A DNA stretch of 64,000 bases from a bacterium (GTDB lineage Bacteria; Patescibacteriota; Dojkabacteria; B142; OLB20). The stretch is from NCBI GenBank assembly GCA_021463645.1, contig JAJTYI010000009.1:93343-157342 (forward strand), given 5' to 3'. The notes under the pieces are model-generated. The model did no database searches. It was not told the DNA's origin and saw nothing but the letters and a program-made list of their open reading frames with translations. Within the stretch, counting starts at the first letter, position 1, and each line of letters opens with the position of its first letter. The translations under genes were made by a program, and so were the position numbers. This document shows positions 9,902 to 58,920 of the stretch, piece after piece.

Positions 9902-9930
9902 AAGGCAATAATTATCAAACAAAAATTAAT

Positions 9931-16662: not shown

Positions 16663-16699
16663 ATTTGTATTACTAAAAAATTATAAAATGTCGGAGATA

Positions 16700-16860
16700 A
16701 TAGACTTGTAAGCTTTTTTCGATAAACCGATTATCTTGTTACTTACTCAAGGTTGTCTTACGACCTGACAGCACCCGCTGATTTTATCCAAAATGGAAAT
16801 ATTCGATAACTGTCTCCTCGTATCACTCTCTCACATAGTGAGGGAGTGACCATACGCTAT
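16700..16860 (-). ncRNA. glmS ribozyme: glmS ribozyme/riboswitch in the glmS 5' leader
   Basis: The minus strand reads ATA^GCG, then a P1 hairpin (TCACTCCCTCAC/GTGAGAGAGTGA), then the core ACGAGGAGACAGTTATCGAATATTT...ATCAGCGGGTGCTGTCAGGTCGTAAGAC...CCTTGAGTAAGTAACAAG. This matches the conserved A^GCG cleavage site and the GACGAGG, GUUxAUCGAA, GGCGGAUGC and CGUAAG blocks. The GACAG/CTGTC pairing is present. Boundaries are approximate. Confidence 0.75.
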
Positions 16861-17023
16861 AAAAAATTATCAATAAAATCTTAAATACGATTATCTCACA
16901 GTGTTGAAACGTGATTCATTATATTAAATCACAAGTTATATCTTAATATAAAATATTTTGTATATGAAAATTTGCCTAATTCACCGATAGATTGTTATAA
17001 TCATACAGTTTTTCAACAATATT

Positions 17024-42901: not shown

Positions 42902-43510
42902 TCAGTGACCGCCTAGAAAGCACTTTGACGTATCATGTCTCTTTGCTGTGCAATAATATCTCCCATAAAGAACCAGACTTTGACTTAGAAATCCCCACTT
43001 ATCTCTAGGGAATAATTCCATCAAGTCTTTTTCGATTTTGTCAGGGTTAGAATTATTAGTTAATCCCAATAATCTGGATATTCTAATCACGTGTGTATCA
43101 ACTGCTATCCCTTCATTTTTACCAAAAGCATTATATAGGACTACATTTGCAGTTTTTCTTGCTACTCCAGGGAGTTTTATTAATTCTCGCATTTCATCTG
43201 GTACTTTCCCATCAAATTCTTCAACAATTTTTTTAGCCGTAGCAATTATTTTCTTTGTTTTTTGGTTATAAAAACCTGTAGAAAATATAATCTTAGCAAC
43301 TTCATCTTGACTTGCTTCACTCATCTCTCTGGGGGTAGGGAAGCGTCCAAATAGAACAGGTGTGACTTTATTAACTCTAGCGTCTGTACATTGTGCAGAT
43401 AGAATTGTCGCTACTAATAATTGGAAGGGATCTTTGAAATCAAGCTCAGACTTTGCATCAGGAAATTTTTCCTCTAACTTATCCAATACGCCGTTAATAT
43501 TAATCACCAT
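42902..43510 (-). CDS. nth: Endonuclease III-like HhH-GPD DNA glycosylase, lacking the complete Fe-S cluster loop
   Basis: DPFQLLVATILSAQCTDARVNKVT and the HhH LPGVARKTANVV...DTHV match Nth. The C-terminus ends YYCTAKRHDTSKCFLGGH with only 2 of the 4 cluster Cys. Confidence 0.8.
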   Translation of the reverse strand: MVININGVLDKLEEKFPDAKSELDFKDPFQLLVATILSAQCTDARVNKVTPVLFGRFPTPREMSEASQDEVAKIIFSTGFYNQKTKKIIATAKKIVEEFDGKVPDEMRELIKLPGVARKTANVVLYNAFGKNEGIAVDTHVIRISRLLGLTNNSNPDKIEKDLMELFPRDKWGFLSQSLVLYGRYYCTAKRHDTSKCFLGGH

Positions 43511-46500
43511 ATCTGATAGTAATGGAGTTTAGTGCAGGCGATTGTAATTGATCTGATTCTATCAACAACCTGTATTGTATAAATTGTTTCCCTTGAATTA
43601 CTTTAGGTAATACGTAACCTTCGTTTGTACCGCTAAGAGTAAAGAACGTTCCTCTGGTGCCATCTGGACCATACCATTCTTCGTTTGAGAGGTTGCTAGA
43701 ACTACCCGATCTAATCTGAATCTTTATTTCACCACCATTTTTAGCTTCATCCCATACGATTGAATGATAATATTTTACAGGAGTTCCCATATCTTTTACT
43801 TCTGATAAATATTCCCCATATTTAGCATAACCACTAGGTAATGCTTCACCTTGCATCAAGGTAAGTTCTTCATTTGTGGAATCGGAAGTGATATAGACAT
43901 ACTCAGAACCTACACCGTTCTTCGCGATTTTAATGTCAGTGGCTTTAATATTAGTTCCAATACTATATGAACACTGGAGTCCATCAATAATATTGTATAC
44001 ATGATATTGATTAGTCGCAGAATATCCGGCAGTAGCGAAGTTATTATTATCTAATCCAACTATTCCTAATGGCGACATATTCACAGAATTAATACCAGTA
44101 ACGAGATCAAGTGAATTATCTATTAAAATATCAAATGAGTAGATGTCTGGGATATGTTCTGTTCCATCAGCGGCGACATAAAACCTTGGAAGTATACTTG
44201 TTGTCGTATCCAAATCTAATCCTTTTCCACTTACTACTCCATCAAAACCAGTTAATCCAAATTCTGAGGTGCTAAGTAGAGTAGTACATGCAAGCTGACC
44301 GCATTCAGTTGCTGTTGCACTAATATATTTATGTCCTGGTGGAAGCGTTAAACCAGTAATTACTTTAGGTGTGATACTGAAATTGTATGTCGGACTTCCT
44401 GCTCTACTGATTTCAGTGTGGATATGATTTGCACCTTCTCCAAAACCTGTATCATCACTGGAGGCGCTCGAGTAGAAATCTAGTCGATAATACTTCCCAC
44501 TTTCACTCTGGAAACCTCCATAAACTGATAATGTTGTCCCCACATATGTCGCTTTCGTCAACACAGGGAAATTCTGTAAATTATTTGGACCATCTCCTGC
44601 TAATGTCGAATCAGTATCACCTTTATCATTGAAACTCACTTTGTCACCAGTTGATGTTCTAAGATTGATTCCCATACCGGTGTTGTCATAAATACTATTT
44701 TCAATAATCGTATTATTTTCTGAGCTATTATTACCGACAATTGAGATTCCATCACTAGCATTGTTTCTAATAGTATTTTCTCGAATAAGTGAATTTTTTG
44801 TTCCAGAAAGATAAACGCCATAACTTGAATTTCTTGCAATTATGTTTCCGTCTGCAGGGTTTGTTCCTCCTATGACATTGTTCGTTGCAACTGGAGAGAT
44901 AAATTGTATTCCATATTTATTACCTAGATTGGCATCAGATGAATTCGTACCGATGTAATTGGATTTTATGGAGATTCCTGAGATTGGTGAACCATATCCA
45001 TAAATTCCAGCACCTCTAACTGCTCCAATTATTATGTTGTTCGTTACAGTTGCAGTTGAGAAGGTGGACCCATTACTTGAGAATAATACTACTCCATAAG
45101 TAGAATCCATTAACTTTGCATTTCCAGCTCTATTGATTCCGATGTAGTTATTATCGACTGTAATTCCTGAAATTGCACCAGTCGTAGTACTTAAGGAATA
45201 AATTCCAGAATTCACAGCAACAATCTGATTATAAGATATGTTGAGATTTGAAACCTTAGTAACTTTAATTCCATCGTAATTAGTAACTTGATTTGCGCCA
45301 GTTTTATCCACCCCGATGTAATTAGCCTCAATGACATTGTCATTGCTTCCTGATGTACCTGCGATGTAGTTTATACCACTCGCACCATTACCTGATATTA
45401 CATTACATACACCTGTACAACTGGCAGGCAGACTATTTAAATCTGCATCTCCAATTTCTATGCTTGTTGAATTATCAATTTCAATACCTGCTGTCGTGTT
45501 TCCTCGTGAATACTCACCAGCCTTATTGGTACCAATATAATTTCCTTGAACTACGTTGGTATTCGAAGATTTGATTTGTAAACCAATATAATTACCACTT
45601 ATGATATTACCTTGACCTGCGGCAGAACCTCCGATAGTATTTCCAGTCGAAGTTGATTCTAAAGTAATACCGCTTTCACTATTGCCCACGATGGTAACAC
45701 CATCTTGAGCAAGTCCGATTATATTACATTGAACAGTTCCTCCTGTGCTTGATGTGTAGTTAATCCCCCTAGAGAATCCATGAATCACTAGACCTTTTAC
45801 TATGCCTCCTGTGGTACTGGAGAAAGACAGTCCTGGACTACTAAGGTTAGCACCTGCTAACACGACTCTTAAATCTTTTGTTGTGCAGTCTGAACCAGTT
45901 TGAGTTGTTCCATCAATCTGGAGTGAGTTTGTTATCGTAGGAAGAGCACTCGATAGACTGATGGTATGTGGTCCGGTCCCAGGAATATTAAAGATAATCT
46001 TGTCAGCATTGGTAGTAGAATTTGCTTCTTGTATCGCTGCCCTCAAAGTACATTTACCTGAAGCCGTATAACAATCTAAATCTCCGATATCAGCATCACT
46101 TTCATCTAGTGTTGAATTTACTACATATCTTCTTGCGTCAGGGTCCCCAAAAATTGTAAAATCATCAATCGCACCCATCGCAGGCTCAGTACCAGTATTA
46201 TGTAGATTTCCAATATAAAGAGTAGGGTTGCCAACCATATCACTAAATACAGTTCCTGTTTTTGTTGGTGTAGGTCTTTCGTTGTCCAAAAATAATTTCA
46301 AGTCATCAGGAGTACTTTTTGTTCTATCCCATTCAGCTCTAATCTTTGTCCAGTTTCCCAATTTCCAATATGATGACCAGTTTGCATATGGAATTTGAAT
46401 GCTCTTAGTCGAGGTGGCATGAGTATACTCTAACCAAAGAGGACTTGATCCACTTTGTTTATAAAGTCTGAATTGATTTGAGTCATCAACTCTAACATTG

Positions 46501-49500
46501 AATAAAGTAACATTCTGTGCGACTGACGAAGAAACATCAGGTTTATAATAAAATTCTATAGCTCCCATGTCTTTTTTGAAACTAACTGGGGGTGTTGAGT
46601 AGGGGATAGCCCCAACCGCTGCATATTCTGAACTTGCATCTATTTTCACACTATCTCCAGTAACTCCAGATACAAATGTCAAGTTTTGAGCAGTGACACC
46701 TTTCCCCACAACCGGAGTGGTTAATGCAGCAACATCATTCATTGTTGAGTACCATATAGGATCAGCGGAAGTCCTAGAAACGGGAGTTGGAGATGGAGTA
46801 GGTGTCAAACCTGCCCCGATACCCCAAATCTGAAATTCACTAATATTTCCTCTTGCTATAGCTGCGGCATTCGGGTAATAGTCCGAACTACCAATTGTTA
46901 ACATGATAGCATTTTCGAAATTGTAAGGATTCATAACTTGAACAGTAGTTTTCGTTGGTTCTACTGTTTCCCAACTAGTACCATTATGATAAGTAATAAA
47001 TAACTTAAGTTTTTCTGCTTCCGTGGGAGCGTAATAATCCCATTCAGCTGAAAATTTCATCCATTTATCAATAGTCCAGTAACTGCTATAATTTGTAGCT
47101 GAAATTCGAGTTCTTCTGTTATCGATGACACCAGTTCCACTACTATTACATTGTCCACCAGTACCAATACAACTGGCATCATAACTGAATTCTAAAATAT
47201 TATTATTTGCATTATTCTTTTTTACTAAACTTATGTTATCTGTCGATCTGGTCCTAAGTTTAAATAATGTCATATCATTATTTCTTGTATATGCAACCGC
47301 TGGTTTATACCAAAATTCGGCTCTACCTTGAAATTTGTCATAATCTTGCCCTTGGATATCTATTAGTATATTCGACTGGCTAGCATTAAAAACAGCTGCC
47401 GATCTAGCTTCTGGAAGTCCATCGGTTGCAAAAGTTACATTGTATACTGAAGTTGGTGTAGTGCCTATTACAGGTTGCCAAGCAGCTGTAGGATTTGATA
47501 ACGTCGAATACCATAATATGCTCATAGCAGGTACCGGAGTTGGGGTTGGACTAAGTGCAAGTACAGTTGGGGTAGGCATATTGACAGAGTAACCATATAT
47601 TCTAAAATCATCTATGCGACCTCTTGCAAATGAGTTGAGATAAGTAGGATCCCCAGCTATGTATAATGTAGAAACATCTGTGATTGGAGTAGCAACCGTG
47701 TTTAAATGTGTATGTTCAGGTTCTATAAGTGGTCCATTATTTGTACTCATAAATAGCCGTAGTTCATTATCTTGATCAAGTGCAGTATTATAATAGATAT
47801 CGAAAAAAATCCATTCTCCACCACTCCATGAAAACGCAGTGCTTGGAATTGTCATTAAATTATAATTAGTAGCACCGTGTGCAGTTGCATAATAATGCAA
47901 TTCTAGATTTAAACCTTTTTTCTTAAAAGTGATTCTATTTGTTGAATTCGAATATAATTGAAAATAGTTTCCGTTTTCATTATCTGTTGAAGCAAACTCC
48001 GGATTGAAATGAAAGCTTACTCTGCCACTAGTTTCATTAACCTCTGCATCAGAAACATTTGAAATGATTCTACTACCTGTACTTTTCCAATTGAACTTTA
48101 CAGCCTTATTGCTTGCGCCACCTGGCGAATATGGGGAACCAGCAAGAAAAACATAGCTTCCCGAAATTGTCCCTGCTGTACCTCTCACGGGATTTTGTAT
48201 TGCAGAAACACTATCGATTGTTGAGTACCATATAGGCGTAGGAGTTGCTGTAGGCGCTACACTCGGTGTAGGCGTAATTGTTGGTGTCAAAGTCGGAGAT
48301 GGTGTTGGCGTAATTGTAGGAGTTGGAATCACGGTTGTAGTGAACATTCTGTATTCATCAATACTACCCAATGCACTATAATCTCCATTTTCTGTTCTAT
48401 TTCCTACATATACTCGAAGAGGATTTGGCTCGGATGTAATATTATCTCCAAGAATTTTGAATTCTTGATTTGTATGAGTTGGTTGAACTCCATTTATATA
48501 AATTTTTAGCTGTTCTGCCAAACTCAACGATGGATTGTCGTTCCAGGTTATCCTAAAGAACATCCATTCTCCATCATTCCAATAAGAATCATAATTTGCT
48601 AGGGCTATAGTTTCTTCTCCACCACAAGATGTTTGACAATGGTAAGAAAAAGCGAGAGCATTGCCGTTGGCATTATCTCTTTTATATAGTCGAATCTCTT
48701 CGTTATCATTTTGCCTAATGCTGAATAGATTTATTTCTGCATTATGGTTTGCCTCGTATATCGGCCTATAATAGAATTCAACCGCACCTTCATTTAAAGA
48801 ATAGTGAATTCCTTGAGTTCCTTCGATGTAAAGACTTTTACCTGCACCATCAAAATAAAGAGCACTTTCATATTCTGCAGGACCATCTATAAATGAAGCT
48901 CCCGAGAATACCCCAGGAACATCCCCAATAGCAGGTGTAGTAACTGCTTCCATACTATCAAAAGTTGAATACCAACTAGCTTGTCCTGAATTCTGCCGAA
49001 AAACTGGTGTGGGAGCAGGAGTTCCAACTGGTGTTGCTTGAGGCTGTGCTACATCATGGTAAATCGTGAAGTCGTCTATCCTTCCGTTTGCTTCATTAGT
49101 ACCAGTAGGTGATGAATTTCCTATATAGATAAATGTAGGATTTAAGATAGAAGAAGGGTTAATTGAAGACGAATTTCGAGTCATTGGCAACTCGACTTCA
49201 TCAACAAGGATTAGAAGTTGTTCGTTGATCGGAGCATAAGCATTCCAATGAATAGTGAAATTGACCCAATCATCAGCCGCAAATGCGTAATCAGCTCCTG
49301 AAATTAAAACCTCTGCATCACCACAATATGCACATTTATATAGTAAAGATAAACTGTCATTGGCATCATTGAGCTTTTTAAATTCAATTTTGTTGTTTGC
49401 ATCACCAAATATACTAAAAAAAGTCATTTCCTTATTTGTCGTATGCGCCTCCAGTGGAGAATACATAAATTCTATAGTACCTTTATCTAATTTAACGTCT

Positions 49501-50459
49501 TCCCCCACAACGGGATTAGAAATCCTAACCACTTCATTATCAGCATTAAAGCGAGCGGAAATTATATCGTAAGAATAATCTTCGTCTACAACAATATTCT
49601 GCGTAACATAATCTACTCCGTTTAATGCTTCGCCTGCAGAACCGGATACTGGATTACTTATATCTGAAGCATTGTCCATTGTTGAATACCAACCAATTGC
49701 CCCAAATCCAAATGCTTCAGTTTCTTCATTTACTTGATTGAAAAAGATGTTCTGACTAAAGAGAACACTTAAAGTAAGTAAAGTTGTCATAACTATACCT
49801 ATAGAGCCTGCAATAGCAGTAGGATAGTGTTTTCTCCTAAGTAAAGTTAAATTTCTCCTTTCTTGTTTTACATTTGAATCAATAACACGTTTATTAAATA
49901 CATAATTTATTAATAGTAAAAAGGAGAGTAATAGTTCTTTAAACCCAATAACAAACAAATTTATCAGTTTCGAGAGGAGTTCATTCTTCTCAAACCTTTG
50001 CTTTACGACATCAAGATCATTCGCTGATTTAATAATCCAAGTTGTTAGTTTTGGGTATTTATAATTAACTTTATTCTCAATTTTTAAAACATCTGATAAT
50101 TCTTTGACTAAGCTCTTAACAAAGTTCTTGGAGGACTTATTTAACACTGAAAAATTATCGGGTACCCTAATTTTTTGCGATTTTTCAACTAGTACAAAAA
50201 CTTTAACTTTACTTGTATGGAATTTCTTATTAGTCAAAAGGAAGTATAGTAGTTCATTCCCGCTATATTTGGGAAGGGTAGTGTCTACTATAATGATTTC
50301 TGGATGTGTGACATAAACAAAACCTAATCCTTCAATACCATTCTGAGAAGTGTATAAATCGAATTTAACGTTATTATTTTTTGCAAGATTGTCTAAAACA
50401 ATTTTTAGTGTCTCTCGAATTGCGAAGTTATTGTCTATTAATACTATATTCTTTTCCAT
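43500..50459 (-). CDS. Giant (2319 aa) receiver-like domain / 2xTM / 5x LamG-like repeats / CSLREA right-handed beta-helix surface protein; last gene of the pilus operon
   Basis: aa 4-~120 are CheY-like (IIIVDTTLPKYSGNELL). TM helices sit near aa 163-188 and 214-238. Five ~200-aa repeats each start xxWYST(M/F/I/L) and end G(R/S/A)IDDF(T/R)I(Y/F), separated by PT linkers. The CSLREA-type motif GKCTLRAAIQEAN is at nt 46032-46055. There are many NxIGxN/G beta-helix turns, and GPNNLQNFPVL. The start abuts the stop of the upstream pilin gene. Confidence 0.85.
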   Translation of the reverse strand: MEKNIVLIDNNFAIRETLKIVLDNLAKNNNVKFDLYTSQNGIEGLGFVYVTHPEIIIVDTTLPKYSGNELLYFLLTNKKFHTSKVKVFVLVEKSQKIRVPDNFSVLNKSSKNFVKSLVKELSDVLKIENKVNYKYPKLTTWIIKSANDLDVVKQRFEKNELLSKLINLFVIGFKELLLSFLLLINYVFNKRVIDSNVKQERRNLTLLRRKHYPTAIAGSIGIVMTTLLTLSVLFSQNIFFNQVNEETEAFGFGAIGWYSTMDNASDISNPVSGSAGEALNGVDYVTQNIVVDEDYSYDIISARFNADNEVVRISNPVVGEDVKLDKGTIEFMYSPLEAHTTNKEMTFFSIFGDANNKIEFKKLNDANDSLSLLYKCAYCGDAEVLISGADYAFAADDWVNFTIHWNAYAPINEQLLILVDEVELPMTRNSSSINPSSILNPTFIYIGNSSPTGTNEANGRIDDFTIYHDVAQPQATPVGTPAPTPVFRQNSGQASWYSTFDSMEAVTTPAIGDVPGVFSGASFIDGPAEYESALYFDGAGKSLYIEGTQGIHYSLNEGAVEFYYRPIYEANHNAEINLFSIRQNDNEEIRLYKRDNANGNALAFSYHCQTSCGGEETIALANYDSYWNDGEWMFFRITWNDNPSLSLAEQLKIYINGVQPTHTNQEFKILGDNITSEPNPLRVYVGNRTENGDYSALGSIDEYRMFTTTVIPTPTITPTPSPTLTPTITPTPSVAPTATPTPIWYSTIDSVSAIQNPVRGTAGTISGSYVFLAGSPYSPGGASNKAVKFNWKSTGSRIISNVSDAEVNETSGRVSFHFNPEFASTDNENGNYFQLYSNSTNRITFKKKGLNLELHYYATAHGATNYNLMTIPSTAFSWSGGEWIFFDIYYNTALDQDNELRLFMSTNNGPLIEPEHTHLNTVATPITDVSTLYIAGDPTYLNSFARGRIDDFRIYGYSVNMPTPTVLALSPTPTPVPAMSILWYSTLSNPTAAWQPVIGTTPTSVYNVTFATDGLPEARSAAVFNASQSNILIDIQGQDYDKFQGRAEFWYKPAVAYTRNNDMTLFKLRTRSTDNISLVKKNNANNNILEFSYDASCIGTGGQCNSSGTGVIDNRRTRISATNYSSYWTIDKWMKFSAEWDYYAPTEAEKLKLFITYHNGTSWETVEPTKTTVQVMNPYNFENAIMLTIGSSDYYPNAAAIARGNISEFQIWGIGAGLTPTPSPTPVSRTSADPIWYSTMNDVAALTTPVVGKGVTAQNLTFVSGVTGDSVKIDASSEYAAVGAIPYSTPPVSFKKDMGAIEFYYKPDVSSSVAQNVTLFNVRVDDSNQFRLYKQSGSSPLWLEYTHATSTKSIQIPYANWSSYWKLGNWTKIRAEWDRTKSTPDDLKLFLDNERPTPTKTGTVFSDMVGNPTLYIGNLHNTGTEPAMGAIDDFTIFGDPDARRYVVNSTLDESDADIGDLDCYTASGKCTLRAAIQEANSTTNADKIIFNIPGTGPHTISLSSALPTITNSLQIDGTTQTGSDCTTKDLRVVLAGANLSSPGLSFSSTTGGIVKGLVIHGFSRGINYTSSTGGTVQCNIIGLAQDGVTIVGNSESGITLESTSTGNTIGGSAAGQGNIISGNYIGLQIKSSNTNVVQGNYIGTNKAGEYSRGNTTAGIEIDNSTSIEIGDADLNSLPASCTGVCNVISGNGASGINYIAGTSGSNDNVIEANYIGVDKTGANQVTNYDGIKVTKVSNLNISYNQIVAVNSGIYSLSTTTGAISGITVDNNYIGINRAGNAKLMDSTYGVVLFSSNGSTFSTATVTNNIIIGAVRGAGIYGYGSPISGISIKSNYIGTNSSDANLGNKYGIQFISPVATNNVIGGTNPADGNIIARNSSYGVYLSGTKNSLIRENTIRNNASDGISIVGNNSSENNTIIENSIYDNTGMGINLRTSTGDKVSFNDKGDTDSTLAGDGPNNLQNFPVLTKATYVGTTLSVYGGFQSESGKYYRLDFYSSASSDDTGFGEGANHIHTEISRAGSPTYNFSITPKVITGLTLPPGHKYISATATECGQLACTTLLSTSEFGLTGFDGVVSGKGLDLDTTTSILPRFYVAADGTEHIPDIYSFDILIDNSLDLVTGINSVNMSPLGIVGLDNNNFATAGYSATNQYHVYNIIDGLQCSYSIGTNIKATDIKIAKNGVGSEYVYITSDSTNEELTLMQGEALPSGYAKYGEYLSEVKDMGTPVKYYHSIVWDEAKNGGEIKIQIRSGSSSNLSNEEWYGPDGTRGTFFTLSGTNEGYVLPKVIQGKQFIQYRLLIESDQLQSPALNSITIRYGD
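46146..49697 (-). repeat. Five tandem LamG/ConA-like lectin domain repeats within the giant ORF
   Basis: Repeat starts at aa 257, 496, 744, 983 and 1236 (WYST motif), with conserved FYY(K/R)P, LF..R and IDDFxIY blocks. Confidence 0.8.
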
Positions 50460-53204
50460 TTACAAGAATGCTTCTAATAATAAATTATTCACCCTTGGTG
50501 TCGGAGTTATACCGTTTGTAACGTCCATCACACCGAAGTTACCATCTTCTCCTAGTCCCAATAGATAAAGCTGATTTGAATTTAGTTTCATATCAACTAT
50601 ATTTCTCAATTTCAGTCCACCAATTGTTGATAAGTTCTTAGCACTAACGTAAGTATTTGTAGTAGGATTGAATTGGATTACATAACTGTCTTGAATAGCA
50701 AAACCTCGAGTATCGTTTGCTATGACTACTCCCTGAGTATCATCATTTGAAGCCAAGCCGAAATTGATAATGTTATGTGTGTTTGTATCCAGATTGAAAA
50801 CAACTATATCTTTTGTTGGATTAGAGGTTGACATATACAGTCGATTATTATATTTGTAAATATCGTTCACTCTATATTTCGCATTACCTGCAATTAATGC
50901 TGGATCAGAGGCTTCACCGCCTGCTAAGGTGCTACCTCTCCATCCGTGTTTCCCCTGATAACTAAAATCATAAACTGTTTGATCGACAGAATTCACAACA
51001 TTCATCCTCCAATAACCAATTAAGCCAGCATCGTTTCGATTTATTTCTGTTTGATATGATTTAACTATCTCATTTTGAGATAACGCACGATTGTATATAC
51101 GAACATCATCCATGTCTATCACCGCACCGTTAGTTAATGCTGTGTTATTTCCAAAACGTAGTTGCTGAGTTGTTCCTGTAACTGGTGAGAGACTAGTATA
51201 AGTATCAGTTAAGGGGCTGGCTCCATTAATATACATAGTTCCAGTACCGCCTGATATGACAACCGCAATATGTCTCCAGTTAGAATCAGAAATTGTATTA
51301 TTGTCTTCAATAATTAGATTTTCCGAGCCGAAATGAGTAAATCTCAGTTTATTGGGTATTGTAAATGATAAAAACCAACCAGTAGTTGAACCGTTAGAAA
51401 AATCTAAAATTCTATCAAAAGAATCTTGAGATGTATCATTTGACCTGAACCAAGTCATTATAGTCATATCATTTTGTACATTCCATTTAGAACTATAGTC
51501 AACCGCAACCACATCCCCACCGTCAAATCTAAGCCCACCCGAGCTCGTATTGTTATCCCAACCGACTGTGTCGATTATTGATTCTGTCATGGAAGGAGGA
51601 AAAGCACCATTCGCGAATCTTTCTAAATAGAGGGCTCTTGAATGTTCACCCTCTGTAGTGTTGTGTTGAGCAACATAGATATTGTCAGAGGAAGGCCTGT
51701 ATAGACAATCTTCATGATTAATTACACTTTGCTGACCTGTTAAAATTGCGGATTTATTTGAAAGATAAGTGCTTAGTAATGTTATAGATGTTGGTGATAG
51801 AAGTCTATTATTTGACAAGTTAAGACCTGGAGTAGGAAGCCCATTGATATTACTTAAATTAGCTATATTTGTAGGAATATGACATGTAAGCGTATTATTA
51901 TTCAAATACAATATATTCAAAGCAGTTAATCGTCCTATAGATGGTGGAATTTGGCCATCTAACTGATTAGACGATAAATTTAAAGTTGTTAAAGCTGTGT
52001 TGTTTCCAATGGTCTTTGGAATTACTCCATCCAGTTGATTACTACTCAGATTCAATGTGGTTAAACTAGTCAACCGTCCAATTTGTGGTGGAATTGGCCC
52101 TGTAATAGAATTCCCAGACAGATTCAATGTTGTTAGGCTTGTTAGGTTTCCCAATTCTGTTGGCAATGTTCCAGTGAGATTGTTACCTATTAAACTTATA
52201 GATGTTATGTTTGTTCCTGAACACCCAACACCGTTCCAACCGGAACACGGATTGGCATTTGCTTTCCAACCAGTATTGTTTGTCCAAGAAGTTCCGTTTG
52301 TACTATCGAAAAGTCTTAACAGACTTTCACATTGTGTAATAGTAGTTCCCGTACCAGTACATATCGAAGGGTTGCTGTTGTTTATTACAGGCATTACTGG
52401 TGAAGCAGGGGCGGGCGCGTTTGTCGGTATAGGACCAGTCAGTGAAGGTTCATACATTTCATAATCAATAGCACCACTTGGAGCGCTATTTGTAGCAATA
52501 GCTTGTGTGCTTCCAGAACCTACTGGAAATAAATCGTAGGATTTTGTAGTTATATTATCTGTTATTACACACCAGTCAGAGTTCGCCATACTAGAGGAAG
52601 AAGTAATCTGTACACTATCATTTTCTACTTTTGTATTTGTGAGTACTGGAGGAGGATTAGAGAAAGTGTAATCATCATATTCTGTCCAACTAGTACTTGA
52701 CCAATTCGTCAAAAAATAGTTTTCTGTGAGTTGTTGGGTATTATTGAAAATATCTGTCCAAGATGCAACAACGATAACTTTGATTGTATCAGGGTCGTTT
52801 CCATCACTTGCGGGAACAAGCTCACCTGAATCTCGATCTGCTTTTTTGAAGTATACTTGATATGTCACTCCATTATTTACTTTTGTACCAAAATTTATTT
52901 GAATTTTATTATTGATGACATCAACAACTCTCGAATCTGAACCATCAGGATCTTGATCGAAGTATCTTATCATTTCTGACCATGAGGAACTTTTAATTGA
53001 ATATAAGCTATTTATGGTGTCTTTGATTACCAAGCCTGCTTCAAGTCTTGTTCTGTCGTTTTGTCTAGAACGAAATGCATCTATTGCCAAACCAAAATTT
53101 GCAGTTACTACAATACCGAAGATAGCCAAAGCAAGTAGTAATTCAACTAGGGAGAAACCTTTATATATTTTTTTGTTTATTTTAATTTTTAATTGATTAC
53201 CCAT
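50460..53204 (-). CDS. Large minor pilin: prepilin N-terminus + LRRNT/plant-type LRR domain + LamG domain + C-terminal beta-rich region
   Basis: Class III signal KKIYKG|FSLVELLLALAIFGIVV. LRR N-cap CESLLRLFDSTNGTSWTNNTGW...NPCSGWNGVGC followed by ~5 24-residue LxxLxLSxNxLxGxIPxxIGxLxx repeats (nt ~51795-52337). LamG with LRFDGGD...DDVRIYNRALSQNEI (nt ~51054-51572). Confidence 0.85.
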   Translation of the reverse strand: MGNQLKIKINKKIYKGFSLVELLLALAIFGIVVTANFGLAIDAFRSRQNDRTRLEAGLVIKDTINSLYSIKSSSWSEMIRYFDQDPDGSDSRVVDVINNKIQINFGTKVNNGVTYQVYFKKADRDSGELVPASDGNDPDTIKVIVVASWTDIFNNTQQLTENYFLTNWSSTSWTEYDDYTFSNPPPVLTNTKVENDSVQITSSSSMANSDWCVITDNITTKSYDLFPVGSGSTQAIATNSAPSGAIDYEMYEPSLTGPIPTNAPAPASPVMPVINNSNPSICTGTGTTITQCESLLRLFDSTNGTSWTNNTGWKANANPCSGWNGVGCSGTNITSISLIGNNLTGTLPTELGNLTSLTTLNLSGNSITGPIPPQIGRLTSLTTLNLSSNQLDGVIPKTIGNNTALTTLNLSSNQLDGQIPPSIGRLTALNILYLNNNTLTCHIPTNIANLSNINGLPTPGLNLSNNRLLSPTSITLLSTYLSNKSAILTGQQSVINHEDCLYRPSSDNIYVAQHNTTEGEHSRALYLERFANGAFPPSMTESIIDTVGWDNNTSSGGLRFDGGDVVAVDYSSKWNVQNDMTIMTWFRSNDTSQDSFDRILDFSNGSTTGWFLSFTIPNKLRFTHFGSENLIIEDNNTISDSNWRHIAVVISGGTGTMYINGASPLTDTYTSLSPVTGTTQQLRFGNNTALTNGAVIDMDDVRIYNRALSQNEIVKSYQTEINRNDAGLIGYWRMNVVNSVDQTVYDFSYQGKHGWRGSTLAGGEASDPALIAGNAKYRVNDIYKYNNRLYMSTSNPTKDIVVFNLDTNTHNIINFGLASNDDTQGVVIANDTRGFAIQDSYVIQFNPTTNTYVSAKNLSTIGGLKLRNIVDMKLNSNQLYLLGLGEDGNFGVMDVTNGITPTPRVNNLLLEAFL

Positions 53205-53581
53205 TCAGTTGCTGTAATATCTGCTATTGTCTTTTGAGTATTATAACTAGATGACCGATATTGACTTTCAACGTTTATAACCCGATTATTACCGCTAGTT
53301 TTTGCAACTGTTGCAGAACATTCACGTTCTGCGTCTATCACAACGGAGAAACTTTCTGTCGTAGTATTTGCATAGGCTGGGTTATTTCTACTAATTTTAT
53401 AGTATGCTTCTTCCAAACATGTAAAAGCGGTATTCTGAGCATAGATTTGATTTGTATAGCTTGTCGTGGAATTTGCAAAGTCCAACGCTTGGAAAATTAA
53501 AACAATTGCAGTGAAGACAAATAATGCCGAAAATACCAAAACAGTGGTTAATGCAACGTTCCCTCTAAGGTTTTCCATCAA
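53189..53581 (-). CDS. PilX-N-like pilus assembly/minor pilin protein
   Basis: N-terminus LRGNVALTTVLVFSALFVFTAIVL resembles the PilX N-terminal domain (RGxxLxxxLxxL). 4-nt overlap with the upstream pilin gene. Confidence 0.5.
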   Translation of the reverse strand: MMENLRGNVALTTVLVFSALFVFTAIVLIFQALDFANSTTSYTNQIYAQNTAFTCLEEAYYKISRNNPAYANTTTESFSVVIDAERECSATVAKTSGNNRVINVESQYRSSSYNTQKTIADITATEWVIN

Positions 53582-54081
53582 TCAAAAATATATGAATTTG
53601 TGAATTCGTTACTAATGGAGTTATCAGCTCTAGATCTGATTCCCACAGTAATCTCCACACCTATATTAGTATCGCTATTATCTAGAATTTCTTCAAGTAA
53701 AAATTTGGTAACTTCAACATCGTTCCTTGTGATTTGTTTGGTTATAGCACCATCGAAAAACTGTAGCCTTGCGTCACTTGTGGCAAAATCAGATACAGTA
53801 TAGTTAATATTAGTAGGACCTGTTAAATACAAGGCTCCATTATTATTATTAAAAATAGTTGATCCCCCAATAGACGTTGTTCTTTCAAAACTATCTTCAA
53901 AATGTTGTGATAATAAAATTATCGCTCGATCAATTTTTAATGCTTCTCCTGAAAGTTGGTTATTATCTTCAACAAAAAAGAAAAAATTAATCATAACAAC
54001 AAAAAACATCCCAAATATTGCAAGATACACGAGAACCTCAATTAACGTCATTCCTTTTAGTTTCTTTCTGTCGAAAATCAT
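53578..54081 (-). CDS. Minor (pseudo)pilin with prepilin-type N-terminal cleavage/methylation motif
   Basis: KKLKG|MTLIEVLVYLAIFGMFF. Confidence 0.8.
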   Translation of the reverse strand: MIFDRKKLKGMTLIEVLVYLAIFGMFFVVMINFFFFVEDNNQLSGEALKIDRAIILLSQHFEDSFERTTSIGGSTIFNNNNGALYLTGPTNINYTVSDFATSDARLQFFDGAITKQITRNDVEVTKFLLEEILDNSDTNIGVEITVGIRSRADNSISNEFTNSYIFD

Positions 54082-55226
54082 TAGTTTATATAATAATTAA
54101 TTAAACCTTCTGAGTTTATTTCTACAAAAACTACGGAACTTCCATTAACAATATTAAAAGAAGTCGTAGAATTTGGTTTGAAACTACCTTCATCAAAATT
54201 AATAATTTTTTTTGCTGGCGAAATCACATTGGATTTGACACCATTAGAAAAAGGAAAATCAGTTTTTGTAAATTTTCGTTGATTATAATTATACAAGTTG
54301 GTGACATCTGTTGATGTTAAGTTTAGGTTATAGATTCTAAGCTCATCGATATCACCAGACCAATTTCTGATATTACTTTGTGCACCACCAAAATTCAAGG
54401 AACCTATTCGAACGGGGAAAGTAGAGGTACCAGTTAAACCCCCTTTTGATGCTGAACCTACTTGGGCTCCATTTAAATAAAGATACATCATTGAACCATC
54501 CCAAGTCGCAACTGCATGGTACCATGTATTAATGGCTAATACCCCCGATGTTACACCTACATAACTTGCTCCTCCTAAATAGTATTCCAATCGGTCTGTA
54601 CTTGTGTTTAATCTCAAGATAAAAGTTGTCCCAGACGAATTTGCGGACTCTTTGGCCACTATGTACCTTAAGCTGTCCTCACCCCCAACAAGAGTGTTTG
54701 TGCGGAACCATACAGATACAGCCAAACTGTTCTCATTATTTAAATTACTAAGAGGTACAGTATCAACCTCAACACCATTGTTGTCTTGGAAAGCAATATA
54801 ATCTCCAATCCCATCAAATTTTGCACTATTACCGAATCCTTCACTAGAAAGTGTGGTGTCTAATTTAGGAGTACCATGGTTACCATTTCCTGAAGCATCA
54901 TATATTTCGTCGTTTACTCCATTCCATAAGTTCTCGTTAAACTTCCAATAACCTACTAATCCATCTGTAGCAAGATCCTCGTCAACCGAAGTAATGAGGG
55001 AGTAACCTGTTTCTCTCACCTCTACACTATAAGCCTTCCCATTCTTAAACGAATTTGCGTTCTGTTGGGCATTGAATATCGCACTACTAACTTCTGCGGC
55101 TGCATCATACGCCCTGTTGTCCGTGATTTGCCTAATACTATATGGAACGGCTAGAACAGATACAAAGCCTGTGATAGCTATCACTATCAGCATCTCAAGT
55201 AATGTAAAGCCTTTCATTGAAAGCAT
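54081..55226 (-). CDS. Minor pilin with C-terminal LamG (ConA-like lectin) domain
   Basis: MLSMKG|FTLLEMLIVIAITGFV prepilin motif. LamG_3 hallmarks GLVGYWKFNE, DASGNGNHGT, AKFDGIGDY, IDELRIYNLNLTSTDV. Confidence 0.85.
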   Translation of the reverse strand: MLSMKGFTLLEMLIVIAITGFVSVLAVPYSIRQITDNRAYDAAAEVSSAIFNAQQNANSFKNGKAYSVEVRETGYSLITSVDEDLATDGLVGYWKFNENLWNGVNDEIYDASGNGNHGTPKLDTTLSSEGFGNSAKFDGIGDYIAFQDNNGVEVDTVPLSNLNNENSLAVSVWFRTNTLVGGEDSLRYIVAKESANSSGTTFILRLNTSTDRLEYYLGGASYVGVTSGVLAINTWYHAVATWDGSMMYLYLNGAQVGSASKGGLTGTSTFPVRIGSLNFGGAQSNIRNWSGDIDELRIYNLNLTSTDVTNLYNYNQRKFTKTDFPFSNGVKSNVISPAKKIINFDEGSFKPNSTTSFNIVNGSSVVFVEINSEGLINYYIN

Positions 55227-56311
55227 TAAAGTTGGTTAATATTTCCTGTTAATTGATAAATTGGACCCACGATTGAAATTGCTAGAACTGCAACCATTAA
55301 TCCAATAAAAATCAATAATAAAGGTTCGATGATTGTACTCATATTATTTGTCATTTCTTCAACCTCTTCTGCATAGAAATCATACAAATATAGTAGGTTG
55401 TCTTCTAAAGTTGCTGTTTTTTCACCTACACTTATCATTTTTACATATAGTGGGGGGAACTGCTTCGGATATCTTCCCAAAACTTCAGCAACGTTCTTAC
55501 CTCTTTGCACTTCTTGTCTTAATGTTTCAAAGATTTGGGCATAAACTACATTACTTGTTGTTGTTGAAGTAATTTTCAATGCATCAGCCAAAGGGATACC
55601 ACTTTCTAGAAGAATTCCCAGGGTCCTGGAAAATGTAGCTAATATATTTTTCACTACTAACTCTTTAATTATTGGGATTTTCAACATCAACTTATCCTTG
55701 AAGTCTGTCCCTGTTTTTGTCTTGAAGAATCGATGACCAACATAAACTATCACAGCCAAAGCGATTGCCAAAAATATAATGTTTGTTCGTATAAAATTCG
55801 AAAAGTTCAATACGAACATTGTAAGGGCAGGGGGATCTTCAAACGCATTAAACAATCCTTCCATCTTAGGTAAGATGAAATAAATCACTCCTAACATTTC
55901 AAAAGATGTCAGGAGCAAGATGATGACTGGATAGACCATAGCACCTTTTACTTTTCTCAAGAGTTCGTAATTTTTCTTCAAGAAAACAGCTAAGAAATTT
56001 AGGTTTTTCTCGAGCGTTCCCCCTTGCTCTCCAACTTCAATAATCGAAATAATTACTTCAGAAAATATATTTGGATATTTCCTCATAGCTGAAGATGTAT
56101 TCTTACCGGTTCGAACATCTTTCAAGATTTCCCCATATGCTTCACGAAGTTTTGGATCTGGTGATTGCTGACTGATTACTTCGAGAGTATCTTCTAGTGA
56201 AAGTCCCGACTCTAACATTACCGCAAGATGCCTAATCGATAAAGCTAAATCGACCTGAGAAACTTTATGAAACAAATATATCGTCTTGTCGTTGGATAAT
56301 TTTATTTCCAT
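55226..56311 (-). CDS. pilC: Type IV pilus / type II secretion platform protein (PilC/GspF family)
   Basis: Two T2SSF repeats, three TM segments, C-terminal GPIYQL. Confidence 0.9.
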   Translation of the reverse strand: MEIKLSNDKTIYLFHKVSQVDLALSIRHLAVMLESGLSLEDTLEVISQQSPDPKLREAYGEILKDVRTGKNTSSAMRKYPNIFSEVIISIIEVGEQGGTLEKNLNFLAVFLKKNYELLRKVKGAMVYPVIILLLTSFEMLGVIYFILPKMEGLFNAFEDPPALTMFVLNFSNFIRTNIIFLAIALAVIVYVGHRFFKTKTGTDFKDKLMLKIPIIKELVVKNILATFSRTLGILLESGIPLADALKITSTTTSNVVYAQIFETLRQEVQRGKNVAEVLGRYPKQFPPLYVKMISVGEKTATLEDNLLYLYDFYAEEVEEMTNNMSTIIEPLLLIFIGLMVAVLAISIVGPIYQLTGNINQL

Positions 56312-56339: not shown

Positions 56340-57848
56340 TTATTGCTTAAGTGCAGTGACTCTCATGATTTCTTCTAAACTCGTAACTCCTGTTTTGACT
56401 GCGTTTACTCCATCTTCAACAATTAACTTCATTCCATTTTCTCTCGCAACTTTGAACACGTCATCAATATTTTCTCTTTCAGAAATCATCCTTCGTATTT
56501 TCTCTGTCACCTCTAGAATTTCAAAGAGACCGAATCTTCCCTGGAAACCACTATCGCCACATGTTTCACAACCAGCCTCTTGATAAACAACATCTCCGAC
56601 TTTGAAATGCATTGCGATATCTTGCCTGATTTTGTTTATCCGTGTTAATTCTTCTTGATCGATGGTGTATTGTTTTTTACATTTTTCACACAATTTCCTA
56701 GCCAATCTCTGGGCAATAACAATATTTAGAGTTGAGGCAACAAGGAAAGGCTCAACATCCATATCAATCAACCTAGGAATTGTTGAAATTGAATCATTTG
56801 TATGCAAGGAGGACAAAACCAAGTGCCCCGTAAGAGCAGCATTGGTGGCTATATTTGCAGTTTCCGCGTCTCGAATCTCTCCAATCATTATAATATCTGG
56901 ATCTTGTCTCAAAATAGAACGAAGTCCCGAGGCAAAAGTCAGGTTAGCTTTATTATTTACTTGTATATGATTTACTCCATCAATACTATACTCCACAGGA
57001 TCCTCAACAGTTGTGATATTTACATCCCTTGAGTTTAATTTCTGCAAAATTGCATATAGACTGGTGGTTTTACCAGAACCAGTAGGACCGACTGCTAGAA
57101 TCATTCCGTAAGGACGCTTATAACTTTTCTCAACCACAAGTTGGTCAGCATCCGACATACCCAACGAACTAAAAGTGAAGGATTTACCTTCTTTGATTAA
57201 CAACCTCATTACTACTTTCTCCCCAGCGCTAGTAGGAAGAATGGAGATACGAGTATCGATTTTCTTATTTTCAATAATAAATCTGATTCTACCGTCCTGA
57301 GGCGCGAAATGCTCGTCAGTACGCATCTTCGCAGCGACTTTAATTCTGAACAATAAGGATTCTTGAATATCTTTGCCGACTTGTAATACATCTTTAAGCA
57401 AACCATCAATTCTAAATCTTACGACAACAACTTCTTCGTGTGGCTCAATATGAATATCAGATGTTTTAGCCTTTATGGCTTGCTTAACTATGTAATTGAT
57501 AAGTTCAACAATATTTAACTCGCTGCCATCTTTCGGTTTCTCGATAGTCTGTATCTTTTTCGCTGGTGGTTGGCTTTCAGGCCCAGGATCAGCATCTTTT
57601 TTTTGTTCAGATTGGTTTACATCTCCAGTCTGCGTTGATACTGCTGGATTTTGAGGTGCGACCGAACCCGGCGTTATCGGATTTGCAGGAGTCTGTGCAA
57701 CAGGATTCGTTGTTTGTGAAGGAGTAACAGAGTTATTTTGATTTTGAACTGTAGATGTGGGAGATGGAGTAGAGGACCCCATAGATGTGGGCACTTGGCC
57801 TGTAGTCGTGTTTACAGTCTGAGAATTTTGGGCAGTTGATCCGGACAT
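56340..57848 (-). CDS. pilB: Type IV pilus assembly ATPase (PilB/GspE family) with a ~100-aa low-complexity N-terminal extension
   Basis: Walker A GPTGSGKTT, Asp/His boxes, tetracysteine CEKCKK...CETCGDSG. The N-terminus is S/T/P/Q/N-rich. Confidence 0.92.
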   Translation of the reverse strand: MSGSTAQNSQTVNTTTGQVPTSMGSSTPSPTSTVQNQNNSVTPSQTTNPVAQTPANPITPGSVAPQNPAVSTQTGDVNQSEQKKDADPGPESQPPAKKIQTIEKPKDGSELNIVELINYIVKQAIKAKTSDIHIEPHEEVVVVRFRIDGLLKDVLQVGKDIQESLLFRIKVAAKMRTDEHFAPQDGRIRFIIENKKIDTRISILPTSAGEKVVMRLLIKEGKSFTFSSLGMSDADQLVVEKSYKRPYGMILAVGPTGSGKTTSLYAILQKLNSRDVNITTVEDPVEYSIDGVNHIQVNNKANLTFASGLRSILRQDPDIIMIGEIRDAETANIATNAALTGHLVLSSLHTNDSISTIPRLIDMDVEPFLVASTLNIVIAQRLARKLCEKCKKQYTIDQEELTRINKIRQDIAMHFKVGDVVYQEAGCETCGDSGFQGRFGLFEILEVTEKIRRMISERENIDDVFKVARENGMKLIVEDGVNAVKTGVTSLEEIMRVTALKQ

Positions 57849-57970: not shown

Positions 57971-58381
57971 TTATCTCGTTAATGTTATCCTTTCTCCATC
58001 CAAATTTGGAGCATATATAGTCAACTGTCCTGCAGGAGAGTTGTAACAAATATTGTAATACGGGGAGTCTCCACCTTTTGGATCAGTTGGATATTCAGCC
58101 ATATATCCATTCTCTAATAACTTGGGAGCGATATCTAACGATGGAAAGGGTACGCCATTCGTAAAATCAGGCTTTCCGCCTGCGCATACAGGGAGGGGCA
58201 TTCCACCAGAATAGGTCAATGAATCCGATACACCCTCTTCTTGTATCATATACATATTAATTGAAGACATGATTTGAGACATTTCTGATGTCCTTTCGGA
58301 ATTTCTTGCCGCTTCAAAATTTGAAGAGGGGTTTAAAGTAAATACGAAGAAGGAAAAGATTAATGTTAATAGTCCAAACAT
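57971..58381 (-). CDS. Pilin paralog lacking the prepilin leader / G-FTLIE cleavage motif
   Basis: LNPSSNFEAARNSERTSEMSQIMSSINMYM aligns with LNPTASFAKARDSERQTEMAQIFTAINRYV of the major pilin, and YPTDPKGG aligns with MPTDPTAG. The N-terminus is just MFGLLTLIFSFFVFT, and no upstream in-frame extension supplies the motif. Confidence 0.65.
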   Translation of the reverse strand: MFGLLTLIFSFFVFTLNPSSNFEAARNSERTSEMSQIMSSINMYMIQEEGVSDSLTYSGGMPLPVCAGGKPDFTNGVPFPSLDIAPKLLENGYMAEYPTDPKGGDSPYYNICYNSPAGQLTIYAPNLDGERITLTR

Positions 58382-58476: not shown

Positions 58477-58920
58477 TTATCTAACCATCGATATTCTAGC
58501 AGTCGAAGTCTCCTTGGCAGGAGCAATAAGTCTCATTGGTCCTGCGGTTCCAGATACATAACAAACCTTATATTGTGCACCTGCTGTAGGATCTGTAGGC
58601 ATTGCCTGTAAGTATCCACCAGTTGTAAGGGTTGTTGCAAATGCTGCTGGGAAATCAGGATTTCCTGTCCATTCAGGAGCTGTTCCCAAACATACATCTA
58701 TTCCCGTGATTCCATCTGCTGAGTTACCATCCACTACATATCTGTTTATTGCTGTAAATATCTGAGCCATTTCTGTTTGTCTTTCTGAATCCCTCGCCTT
58801 TGCGAAACTGGCGGTTGGATTTAATGCAATAATCGTAACGGCTGCCAAAATAGCAATCAAACCGATTACAATCAAAATTTCAATTAATGTAAAACCTTTT
58901 AGGTCTGTAACTTTTCTCAT
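58477..58920 (-). CDS. pilA: Major type IV pilin
   Basis: MRKVTDLKG|FTLIEILIVIGLIAILAAV class III signal with Glu5. 147 aa with its own promoter and terminator. First gene of the cluster. Confidence 0.9.
   Translation of the reverse strand: MRKVTDLKGFTLIEILIVIGLIAILAAVTIIALNPTASFAKARDSERQTEMAQIFTAINRYVVDGNSADGITGIDVCLGTAPEWTGNPDFPAAFATTLTTGGYLQAMPTDPTAGAQYKVCYVSGTAGPMRLIAPAKETSTARISMVR

Follow-up and report, generated by a model that had tools for sequence, protein, structure and literature searches.

Modular pilins, defined by Raynaud et al. in 2021 as proteins with a pilin module (IPR012902) at the N-terminus, joined to one or more domains that are not particular to the biology of pili, are widespread and occur in 264 architectures, the commonest of which combines a pilin with a laminin G (LamG) domain (pilin-PF13385, 229 proteins; PMC8179133). 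Streptococcus sanguinis has two such minor pilins, PilB (pilin-vWA) and PilC (pilin-concanavalin A (ConA)-like lectin) (PMC8179133; PMC9934059). All bacteria cultivated from the candidate phyla radiation (CPR, or Patescibacteria) live attached to other microbes, and their pili and lectin-like or propeller-bearing minor pilins are the best candidates for host recognition; in Nanosynbacter lyticus TM7x, the propeller-bearing minor pilin PilX2 is needed for efficient host binding, and the same study described lectin-like minor pilins and a dependence on host glycans (PMC11623550). Here we describe a minor-pilin gene encoding a protein of 914 amino acids (aa), located on the minus strand at positions 50460..53204 of a 64-kb stretch (hereafter the window; contig JAJTYI010000009.1 of assembly GCA_021463645.1) from an uncultured, ultra-small bacterium of the CPR lineage Dojkabacteria. 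Its product is a trimodular minor pilin of the known modular-pilin kind, in which a leucine-rich repeat (LRR) domain, a LamG domain and half of a β-propeller follow the pilin module; the surprising parts are its history of nested insertions and its apparently split propeller.

As in S. sanguinis PilB and PilC, an N_methyl pilin module is linked here to adhesion modules of a non-pilus kind, one of them a LamG/ConA-like lectin, in a minor pilin that is encoded in a pilus operon and expected at the tip. Unlike those proteins, the 914-aa protein adds three modules rather than one, and it belongs to a CPR bacterium and is known from sequence alone. PilX2 of TM7x, another minor pilin from the CPR and a candidate tip adhesin, likewise carries a β-propeller behind its pilin module, and relatives of the 914-aa protein of about 645 aa share its layout (N_methyl plus LVIVD repeats). 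The likeness is one of layout, and in contrast to PilX2, the propeller of the 914-aa protein is interrupted by the LRR-LamG segment and cut to about three blades, the rest lying on the next gene. The PilY1/PilC tip adhesins of type IVa pili also place a β-propeller at the minor-pilin tip complex, as here; the propeller here is of the LVIVD type, and no Pfam PilY1 (Neisseria_PilC) match was found.

Domain architecture of the 914-aa pilin

The gene and its parts, all on the minus strand, were assigned as follows, from the whole gene and then from the N- to the C-terminus of the protein.

50460..53204, minus: whole gene of the 914-aa modular minor pilin, with an ATG start and a TAA stop at 50460-50462 (domain content and orthologues)
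53070..53204, minus: class III (prepilin) signal, with the leader at residues 1-16 ending in Gly16 (N_methyl and TIGR02532)
52569..53069, minus: globular pilin module, residues 46-212, ending at an invariant DWC motif (hhalign to the 645-aa CPR pilin family, E 1e-37)
52446..52568, minus: residues 213-253, colinear with the region after DWC in the 645-aa family and just upstream of the insertion point (hhalign reaches residue 235)
52362..52445, minus: Pro-rich linker, residues 254-281 (read from the sequence; conserved in the orthologue alignment)
52212..52361, minus: LRR N-cap, residues 282-331, with invariant Cys282, Cys292, Cys320 and Cys328 and the motif W..W...PC.W.GV.C (LRRNT_2 matches of orthologues; alignment to the MIK2 and GSO1 caps)
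51849..52211, minus: LRR1-5, residues 332-452, 24-residue repeats of the plant-specific (PS) class, LxxLxLxxNxLxGxIPxxIGxLxx (Pfam, pattern matching and AlphaFold2 (AF2))
51690..51848, minus: residues 453-505, an incomplete sixth LRR together with the C-terminal cap (invariant Cys441 and Cys500)
51045..51521, minus: LamG/ConA-like lectin domain, residues 562-720 (Laminin_G_3; AF2 β-sandwich)
50493..50903, minus: residues 768-904, forming about three blades of a β-propeller, with homology to the initial half of the LVIVD propeller of the 645-aa family (BLASTP E 9e-4; hhalign; four-stranded blades in AF2)
50463..50492, minus: residues 905-914, VNNLLLEAFL, a C-terminal tail that is well conserved (0.75 mean pairwise identity, equal to that of the pilin N-terminus)

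The N-terminus reads MGNQLKIKINKKIYKG up to the predicted cleavage point and FSLVELLLALAIFGIVV after it, that is, a short basic leader ending at Gly16 followed by the hydrophobic α1-N helix. Phe17 and Glu21 occupy positions +1 and +5 relative to this point, so that every element of a class III signal (basic leader, Gly, Phe at +1, Glu at +5 and a hydrophobic stretch) is present. Both N_methyl of Pfam (residues 14-35; E 1.5e-6; 28 bits against a cutoff of 21.2) and IV_pilin_GFxxxE of NCBIfam (TIGR02532; 23.4 bits against a cutoff of 16.3) matched above their cutoffs, and KGFSLVELL was invariant across 11 aligned orthologues. An earlier, sequence-only reading of this DNA had proposed a prepilin signal here, quoting KG followed by FSLVELLLALAIFG; this string lies at residues 15-30, and the proposal was borne out. 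In the AF2 model, a helix extended over residues 19-70 and β-sheet strands over residues 92-166, with the pilin module at a predicted local distance difference test (pLDDT) score of only 60-80. The LamG domain was matched by Laminin_G_3 at residues 562-713 (E 5.5e-21; 75.7 bits against a cutoff of 27.6), and the same family was found in all 11 orthologues (best E 2.8e-26). N_methyl, LRR and Laminin_G_3 together bring the gene within the definition of a modular pilin, and the union of pilin, LRR and LamG that the sequence-only reading had proposed held, with Pfam matches well beyond chance. A structure prediction had also been called for there, and AF2 was confident over the LRR (pLDDT 85-95), with a LamG pLDDT of about 80.

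The gene is real and under constraint, because 12 clusters of full-length orthologues, found in metagenomes, share its architecture (identical Pfam content) at 36-100% identity. Mean pairwise identity among the orthologues was 0.42-0.75 over all domains, and seven cysteines (C212, C282, C292, C320, C328, C441 and C500) were invariant in the alignment. GC content was uniform along the gene (35.6% overall) and ranged over 33-38% in the window. The sequence-only reading had named no strand; the translation of the plus strand over 50460..53204 is riddled with stops. A 135-aa open reading frame (ORF) antisense to the LRR-coding region (52057-52464, plus strand) is almost certainly a by-product of the repeat-rich opposite strand and not a gene.

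We found no LRR pilins in CPR bacteria in the literature. The LRRs of entry IPR026906 we take to be of the BspA type. Pilins with IPR026906 number 18 + 6 and those with IPR001611 (LRR) a single protein among the modular architectures tabulated in 2021, and the pilin-LRR-LamG combination is not in that table (PMC8179133).

Repeat class, cap and fold of the LRR domain

Pfam matches to LRR_1, LRR_8, LRR_4 and LRR_14 covered residues ~354-456 (E 2e-16 to 1e-8). Four units of exactly 24 residues (333-428) fitted the PS consensus, LxxLxLxxNxLsGxIPxxLGxLxx (PMC13618415); the fifth is a variant with Cys for Gly (LTCHIP), and the sixth is partial. Across the 11 orthologues, the PS pattern was matched 4, 4, 4, 4, 4, 4, 4, 4, 3, 3 and 1 times, and the typical, SDS22-like, bacterial and RI-like LRR patterns not once. 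No match to LRRNT_2 (PF08263) was obtained with the 914-aa protein itself, either with the isolated cap (E<=10) or at full length (E<=1), but PF08263 matched 10 of the 11 orthologues at E<=1 (best 6.2e-5), and close bacterial relatives of the cap (P0016, P0059, P0074, P0049 and P0092) carry precomputed matches to it. In a phmmer search of PDB sequences, the ectodomains of GSO1, FLS2, MIK2 and PEPR1 came out on top, with alignments that reached into the cap for MIK2 and GSO1. The cap is thus LRRNT_2-like to judge from orthologues and alignments, and the repeats are of the PS class and not of the 20-22-residue bacterial class. The sequence-only reading had described a plant-type LRR domain with an LRRNT cap, citing CESLLRLFDSTNGTSWTNNTGWKANANPCSGWNGVGCSGTNITSISLIGNNLTGTLP (residues 292-348). 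Its 24-residue repeat pattern was upheld, as were the LRR_8 match and the subclass it had wished to see examined; its cap stood through the orthologues and the alignment to MIK2 and GSO1, and not through a family match on the protein itself. Neither of the findings that it had named as fatal, an ordinary bacterial repeat class and a cap unsupported by profiles, was obtained.

A Foldseek search of the PDB placed OsSERK2, SERK1, BAK1 and MIK2 at the top (TMt 0.76-0.83; E about 1e-11), the SERK/BAK1-type matches having 28-36% identity over about 160-210 aligned columns. With its 5-6 repeats, the LRR domain equals a plant SERK ectodomain in size and shape, and Cys441 and Cys500 are inferred to form a capping disulfide. 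A recent expansion of the repeats was considered and rejected: Tandem Repeats Finder saw no 72-bp periodicity, and in the absence of a tandem repeat at the DNA level, the LRR units are therefore regarded as old. In three sister clusters (P0121, P0124 and P0127; ~1100 aa), an extra domain of ~190 aa lies inside the LRR N-cap, between WTNKTGW and PCSWYGVTC, which adds a second tier of insertion to this protein.

Bacterial relatives of the plant-like LRR

The likeness to plant receptors raised the question of origin. Like the plant SERK/BAK1 co-receptors (5-LRR) and PGIP, the LRR domain has the 24-residue PS repeat, the PC.W.GV.C cap and the same size and shape; unlike plant LRR receptors, the 914-aa protein has neither a kinase nor a plant transmembrane context, its cap signature L(Y/F)xSTNGxxWTNxTGW is of a bacterial type, and its closest sequence relatives are bacterial. 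A search with the whole protein gave 4622 matches, mostly to bacterial and metagenomic LRR proteins; named sources included Gemmatimonadota, Bacteroidales/Prolixibacteraceae with sorting domains of the type IX secretion system (T9SS), Desulfobacterales and Fidelibacterota, to which a search with only the cap and LRR added Actinomycetales, Acidobacteriota and Anaerolineae. The cap with PS-type repeats is carried by thousands of bacterial and metagenomic proteins. When the cap alone was compared by BLAST with 228 retrieved proteins from outside the family, 172 matched at E<=1e-3, the best at 48-52% identity and with the shared signature (E)C(E)aL..LY.STNG..WTN.TGW....PC.W.GV.C; there was no plant protein among the top 45 of these cap-only matches, and the best plant match had an E of 5.6e-7 against 1e-16 for the best non-plant match. 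For the cap and LRR together, the top 15 high-scoring segment pairs were all non-plant (140-155 bits; 44-51% identity; cap included), and the 18 plant proteins ranked 189-227 of ~228 (69-97 bits), mostly with alignments starting past the cap.

Horizontal transfer of the LRR ectodomain out of a plant, to imitate plant receptor kinases or serve as their decoy, would agree with the PS consensus, the LRRNT_2-like cap, and the lead taken by GSO1, FLS2, MIK2 and PEPR1 among the PDB sequences and by the SERK/BAK1 ectodomains among the structures (TMt about 0.8). Miyashita et al. (2013) reportedly proposed transfer of PS-LRRs between plants and bacteria. However, the PDB holds few bacterial PS-LRR structures, which biases its ranking, whereas in a search of 5.8 billion proteins, the closest relatives of the cap and LRR are non-plant proteins, mostly from metagenomes, with 45-51% identity and the cap aligned, and all 18 plant matches stand in ranks 189-227. 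There is also no GC anomaly; moreover, the source of the organism is metagenomes of the wastewater type, and CPR bacteria in cultivation live on other microbes (PMC11623550). We regard such a transfer as extremely improbable, and a plant origin was rejected on the nearest-neighbour ranking and the flat GC content. "Plant-type" describes the repeat class and fold of this LRR and not its source, the type being common in bacteria, and the suggestion of the sequence-only reading that it is foreign to bacteria or points to plants was not sustained: the nearest relatives are non-plant, the plant proteins rank last, and the GC content is flat.

The repeat class and cap are also shared with the LRR regions of the Xanthomonas proteins XopAE, XopAC and XopL and with T9SS-sorted Bacteroidota proteins. 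The partial NCBIfam matches to XopAE (E 5e-14) and XopAC (E 7e-12) covered the LRR stretch only, and the scores were 52 bits for XopAE (cutoff 600), 45 for XopAC (cutoff 450) and 24 for XopL (cutoff 500), far too low for the 914-aa protein to be a member of these families. Moreover, the Xop and Bacteroidota LRR proteins are exported by the type III secretion system, T9SS or Sec, in contrast to the prepilin signal found here.

Pilin-propeller ancestry and the adjoining 2319-aa protein

A profile of the pilin module (residues 1-276) matched 547 proteins at E<=1e-3 among 1.84 billion representatives. Nine of these matches lay at or below 1e-30. The four of them that were scanned (953-1117 aa) carry LRR and LamG, as does the window protein; P0122, P0123 and P0125 show 37-44% identity in alignments that cover almost the full proteins, and one match of this class is a 71-aa fragment. 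A large group of proteins of 630-665 aa combines N_methyl with LVIVD β-propeller repeats, and further matches have GH115_C, or else LamG behind a complete propeller. Because its profile matches carry such variable C-terminal modules, the pilin scaffold is a widespread CPR minor pilin with exchangeable C-terminal modules. No second LRR gene and no second pilin of the 645-aa type were found within the window.

The next gene downstream of the 914-aa gene is needed for the comparison with this family.

43500..50459, minus: 2319-aa gene, whose ATG follows the TAA of the 914-aa gene in the same frame; receiver (REC)-like N-terminus, transmembrane segment, five ~240-aa repeats, right-handed β-helix, half-propeller and C-terminal domain
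43503..44228, minus: C-terminal 242 aa of the 2319-aa protein, residues 2078-2319; second propeller half and C-terminal domain of the 645-aa family (BLASTP E 3e-15)

A 646-aa relative from another Dojkabacteria genome (L005:7419-9359) aligned in three parts. Its residues 10-201 matched residues 16-212 of the 914-aa protein (BLASTP E 1e-18), its residues 265-386 matched residues 777-893 of the same protein (E 9e-4), and its C-terminus (510-644) matched residues 2187-2317 of the 2319-aa protein (E 3e-15). The same division was obtained in a profile-profile comparison with A3, a 30-member alignment of the 645-aa family: columns 1-221 corresponded to pilin residues 5-235 (hhalign E 1e-37; probability 99.95%), columns ~250-394 to pilin residues ~766-905 (probability 97.8%; E 8e-13), and columns 398-640 to residues 2078-2316 of the 2319-aa protein (E 8e-29 and 5e-32). 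There were no other matches to the 645-aa family in the window. A full propeller and C-terminal domain in one polypeptide are thus absent from the 914-aa protein, which holds only columns ~250-394 of that part. The alternative that the C-termini of the two proteins are paralogous copies was rejected, since they match different, adjacent parts of the family and gave an hhalign E of only 0.28 with each other.

Because the columns of the 645-aa family are divided between the 914-aa pilin and the 2319-aa protein, the ancestor appears to have been a pilin of ~645 aa with an LVIVD propeller and a C-terminal domain, and the 914-aa gene seems to represent half of an earlier pilin gene that broke into two. 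Two changes would account for the present arrangement. A cassette of ~510 aa (Pro-rich linker, LRR and LamG) would have been inserted near a DPP motif after the DWC motif, early in the propeller region, and a break in the middle of the propeller would have left the second half and the C-terminal domain at the end of the next gene. Residues 213-253, where AF2 confidence was low, are possibly the first propeller blade. Neither the C-terminal half-propeller of ~150 aa nor the LRR-LamG insertion had been noticed in the sequence-only reading.

When pilin residues 745-907 were concatenated with residues 2079-2319 of the 2319-aa protein, the product aligned colinearly with unsplit members of the family, leaving a gap of only 8 residues where the two parts meet. 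The AF2 model of this chimera (mean pLDDT 74.5) had about six four-stranded blades, three from each protein, and a C-terminal β-sandwich, with a dip in confidence at the junction; the prediction was guided by intact homologues and indicates compatibility with a propeller fold, not association in trans. Foldseek matched the chimera to 6-8-bladed propellers, Seh1 chains among them. The half-propeller has a mean pairwise identity of 0.52, and identity fell to 36% among the pilin orthologues and, at four loci, to 48% for the neighbour; since both propeller halves and the pilin tail (0.75) are conserved, they can therefore be argued to be still functional. The most far-reaching possibility is that a single β-propeller is put together again in trans by the products of these neighbouring genes, which would be coupled in translation, from pilin residues 768-904, perhaps with 213-253, and residues 2078-~2200 of the 2319-aa protein. 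In the Seh1-Nup85 and Sec13-Nup145C pairs, a propeller is assembled from two polypeptides, which provides a precedent for completion in trans; for the present proteins, such assembly is hypothetical, and we consider it doubtful.

The REC-like N-terminus of the 2319-aa protein is strongly conserved, with Asp9 and Asp59 within DTTLPKYSGNELL, a motif that on reading resembles the phospho-acceptor region of a receiver; Pfam Response_reg matched it at E 0.021 and weakly matched the orthologue from L033 as well. A transmembrane segment follows at ~212-236, and then five repeats of ~240 aa, which start with W[YF]ST at 257, 496, 744, 983 and 1236, each end in G.I(D/S)(D/E)(F/Y).(I/M)(F/Y/W) and are separated by Pro/Thr linkers; the β-helix spans ~1765-1946. 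A receiver domain on a giant ectodomain is unusual. The identification of the five repeats as LamG was not accepted, the match being below threshold (E 0.024), and they are left as a LamG-like motif. The two ORFs share a frame, with one TAA between them, both in the window and, judging by coordinates, in L001, L002, L033 and L034. Readthrough of this stop codon is disfavoured as the way in which the ORFs are joined: it is unlikely to be required because in L004 they overlap by 1 nt in different frames, and the second ORF has a conserved REC-like domain and a transmembrane segment of its own. Translational coupling of the two genes is the better reading.

Operon context and conserved synteny

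The genes upstream of the 914-aa gene, listed in the direction of transcription, encode the components of a type IV pilus.

58477..58920, minus: 147-aa pilin with N_methyl, candidate major pilin (Pfam)
57971..58381, minus: pilin-like 136-aa ORF, whose globular part resembles the adjoining 147-aa pilin
56340..57848, minus: PilB/GspE assembly ATPase (Pfam T2SSE, E 3e-126)
55226..56311, minus: PilC/GspF platform protein (Pfam T2SSF, E 3e-58)
54081..55226, minus: minor pilin 1, 381 aa, N_methyl and Laminin_G_3, with weak GspH/ComGD-like matches (Pfam, NCBIfam)
53578..54081, minus: minor pilin 2, 167 aa, N_methyl, with weak GspI/ComGE-like matches (Pfam, NCBIfam)
53189..53581, minus: 130-aa protein with a hydrophobic N-terminus (synteny conserved)

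The operon thus runs from the pilin through the pilin-like ORF, PilB, PilC and the 381-, 167- and 130-aa genes to the 914-aa and 2319-aa genes, and pilB and pilC are directly followed by four minor-pilin genes, of which the 914-aa gene is the last; the operon holds four other pilin-like genes in all. This gene order was also kept in L001, L002, L004, L033 and L034, that is, in six loci counting the window. The 130-aa protein, without a family match in the Pfam scan, is presumed to be the fourth tip subunit. Minor pilin 1 carries LamG in the window, L001, L033 and L034 (375-381 aa) and is a plain 152-aa pilin in L002 (8667-9125), so that its LamG appears to have been gained or lost within the clade. 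The 136-aa ORF, whose NPSSNFEAARNSERTSEM in the globular part resembles NPTASFAKARDSERQTEM in the 147-aa pilin, has no recognisable GF..E prepilin motif and no N_methyl match. It may be a degenerate or non-canonical pilin paralogue; its synteny is conserved.

The closest named relatives were metagenome-assembled genomes of Candidatus Dojkabacteria. L003 was 74% identical, and L005 (UBA2259) carries the more distant 646-aa relative; one related contig came from a wastewater metagenome. In L005, a 206-aa ORF with multiple transmembrane segments that is prepilin peptidase-like (10165-10785, plus strand) directly follows the minor pilins. Elsewhere in the window, a glmS ribozyme/riboswitch (16697-16869, minus strand; Rfam RF00234, 47.4 bits against a gathering score of 37 bits) lies just upstream of the ORF at 14878-16662 (minus strand), and the region 1146-11817 (minus strand) holds a run of large, probable surface proteins, including a β-helix/NosD-like protein (508 aa), a pectate-lyase-like protein (906 aa) and a protein with FG-GAP repeats and an Ig domain (917 aa); two more proteins of this run (554 and 628 aa) had no family match.

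Proposed function and its alternatives

We propose that the 914-aa protein is probably a pilus-presented adhesin subunit of a type IV pilus; the earlier suggestion that a pilus displays it as a receptor thus agrees with the function that we find most plausible. Prepilin peptidase would cleave after Gly16, Phe17 would be methylated, and the α1 helix would be embedded in the core of the filament. The subunit and the three upstream minor pilins would jointly prime assembly, and it would end at the pilus tip as part of a tip complex. The LRR, suited to protein or peptide ligands, and the LamG domain, suited to glycans, would project on the Pro-rich linker and bind the envelope of a host microbe, in parallel with S. 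sanguinis PilB/PilC and TM7x PilX2; the most likely role of the LRR and LamG is to grip a host cell. Several points weigh against this proposal. A strict location at the tip is argued from size and analogy only, and we lean towards it with less assurance than towards the adhesin role itself. No prepilin peptidase was found in the 64-kb window by tblastn at E<=10, so that processing would rely on a gene elsewhere. The GspH/I/J/K-type roles of the four minor pilins rest on matches far below the family cutoffs. The concave face of the LRR is bland and consensus-like (LTTLNLSSN repeated), giving no hint of a ligand, and the AF2 model of the whole protein is poor (pLDDT 63; pTM 0.37; residues 169-258, 496-563 and 735-777 below 50).

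Archaeal sugar-binding proteins with prepilin signals offer a model in which the class III signal serves export and anchoring only, and the 914-aa protein would then be a receptor or binding protein retained in the membrane. Its very large size would suit this role, and a half-propeller complementary to that of the membrane-anchored 2319-aa neighbour would be more easily completed if both proteins stayed at the membrane. We nevertheless judge membrane retention improbable, considering the position of the gene among minor pilins after pilB and pilC, the conservation of Phe1 and Glu5 of the mature protein and the frequency of homologous CPR pilins with propellers; in addition, PilX2 of TM7x aids pilus-mediated host binding (PMC11623550), and bulky modular pilins are presented by pili (PMC8179133). 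The weak matches of the upstream minor pilins to GspH, GspI, ComGD, ComGE and ComGF, and an operon with only one ATPase and no PilT, would also be compatible with a pseudopilus of the type II secretion system (T2SS)-like or competence (Com) type, with the 914-aa protein as its tip pseudopilin and cargo or DNA-associated material, rather than a host surface, as the target of its modules. CPR bacteria are presumed to rely on DNA uptake. The LRR and LamG, however, are ligand-binding adhesion modules and not DNA-binding ones, there is no secretin or T2SS-specific component within the window, and T4P-2 pilin mutants of TM7x had no competence defect (PMC11623550). A tip pseudopilin seems to us an even slimmer prospect than membrane retention, and a pilus-presented adhesin is the reading with which we proceed.

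Implications for CPR bacteria

The locus argues against reading plant ancestry into a bacterial LRR because it is "plant-type". It may also hold a natural β-propeller of which one part belongs to a pilin and the other to the giant membrane protein encoded next to it. If this were true, a propeller assembled in trans would couple a pilus-tip pilin to a giant surface protein with a cytoplasmic, receiver-like N-terminus, and the coupled pair would form one giant composite adhesin or else connect the pilus to a signalling domain inside the cell. Independently of that possibility, the 914-aa pilin and its orthologues offer a concrete and conserved case, in an uncultured lineage, of one pilin scaffold that appears to have gathered adhesion modules by nested insertion, with LRR-LamG inserted into the propeller region and, in the sister clusters, a domain of ~190 aa inserted in turn inside the LRR cap.

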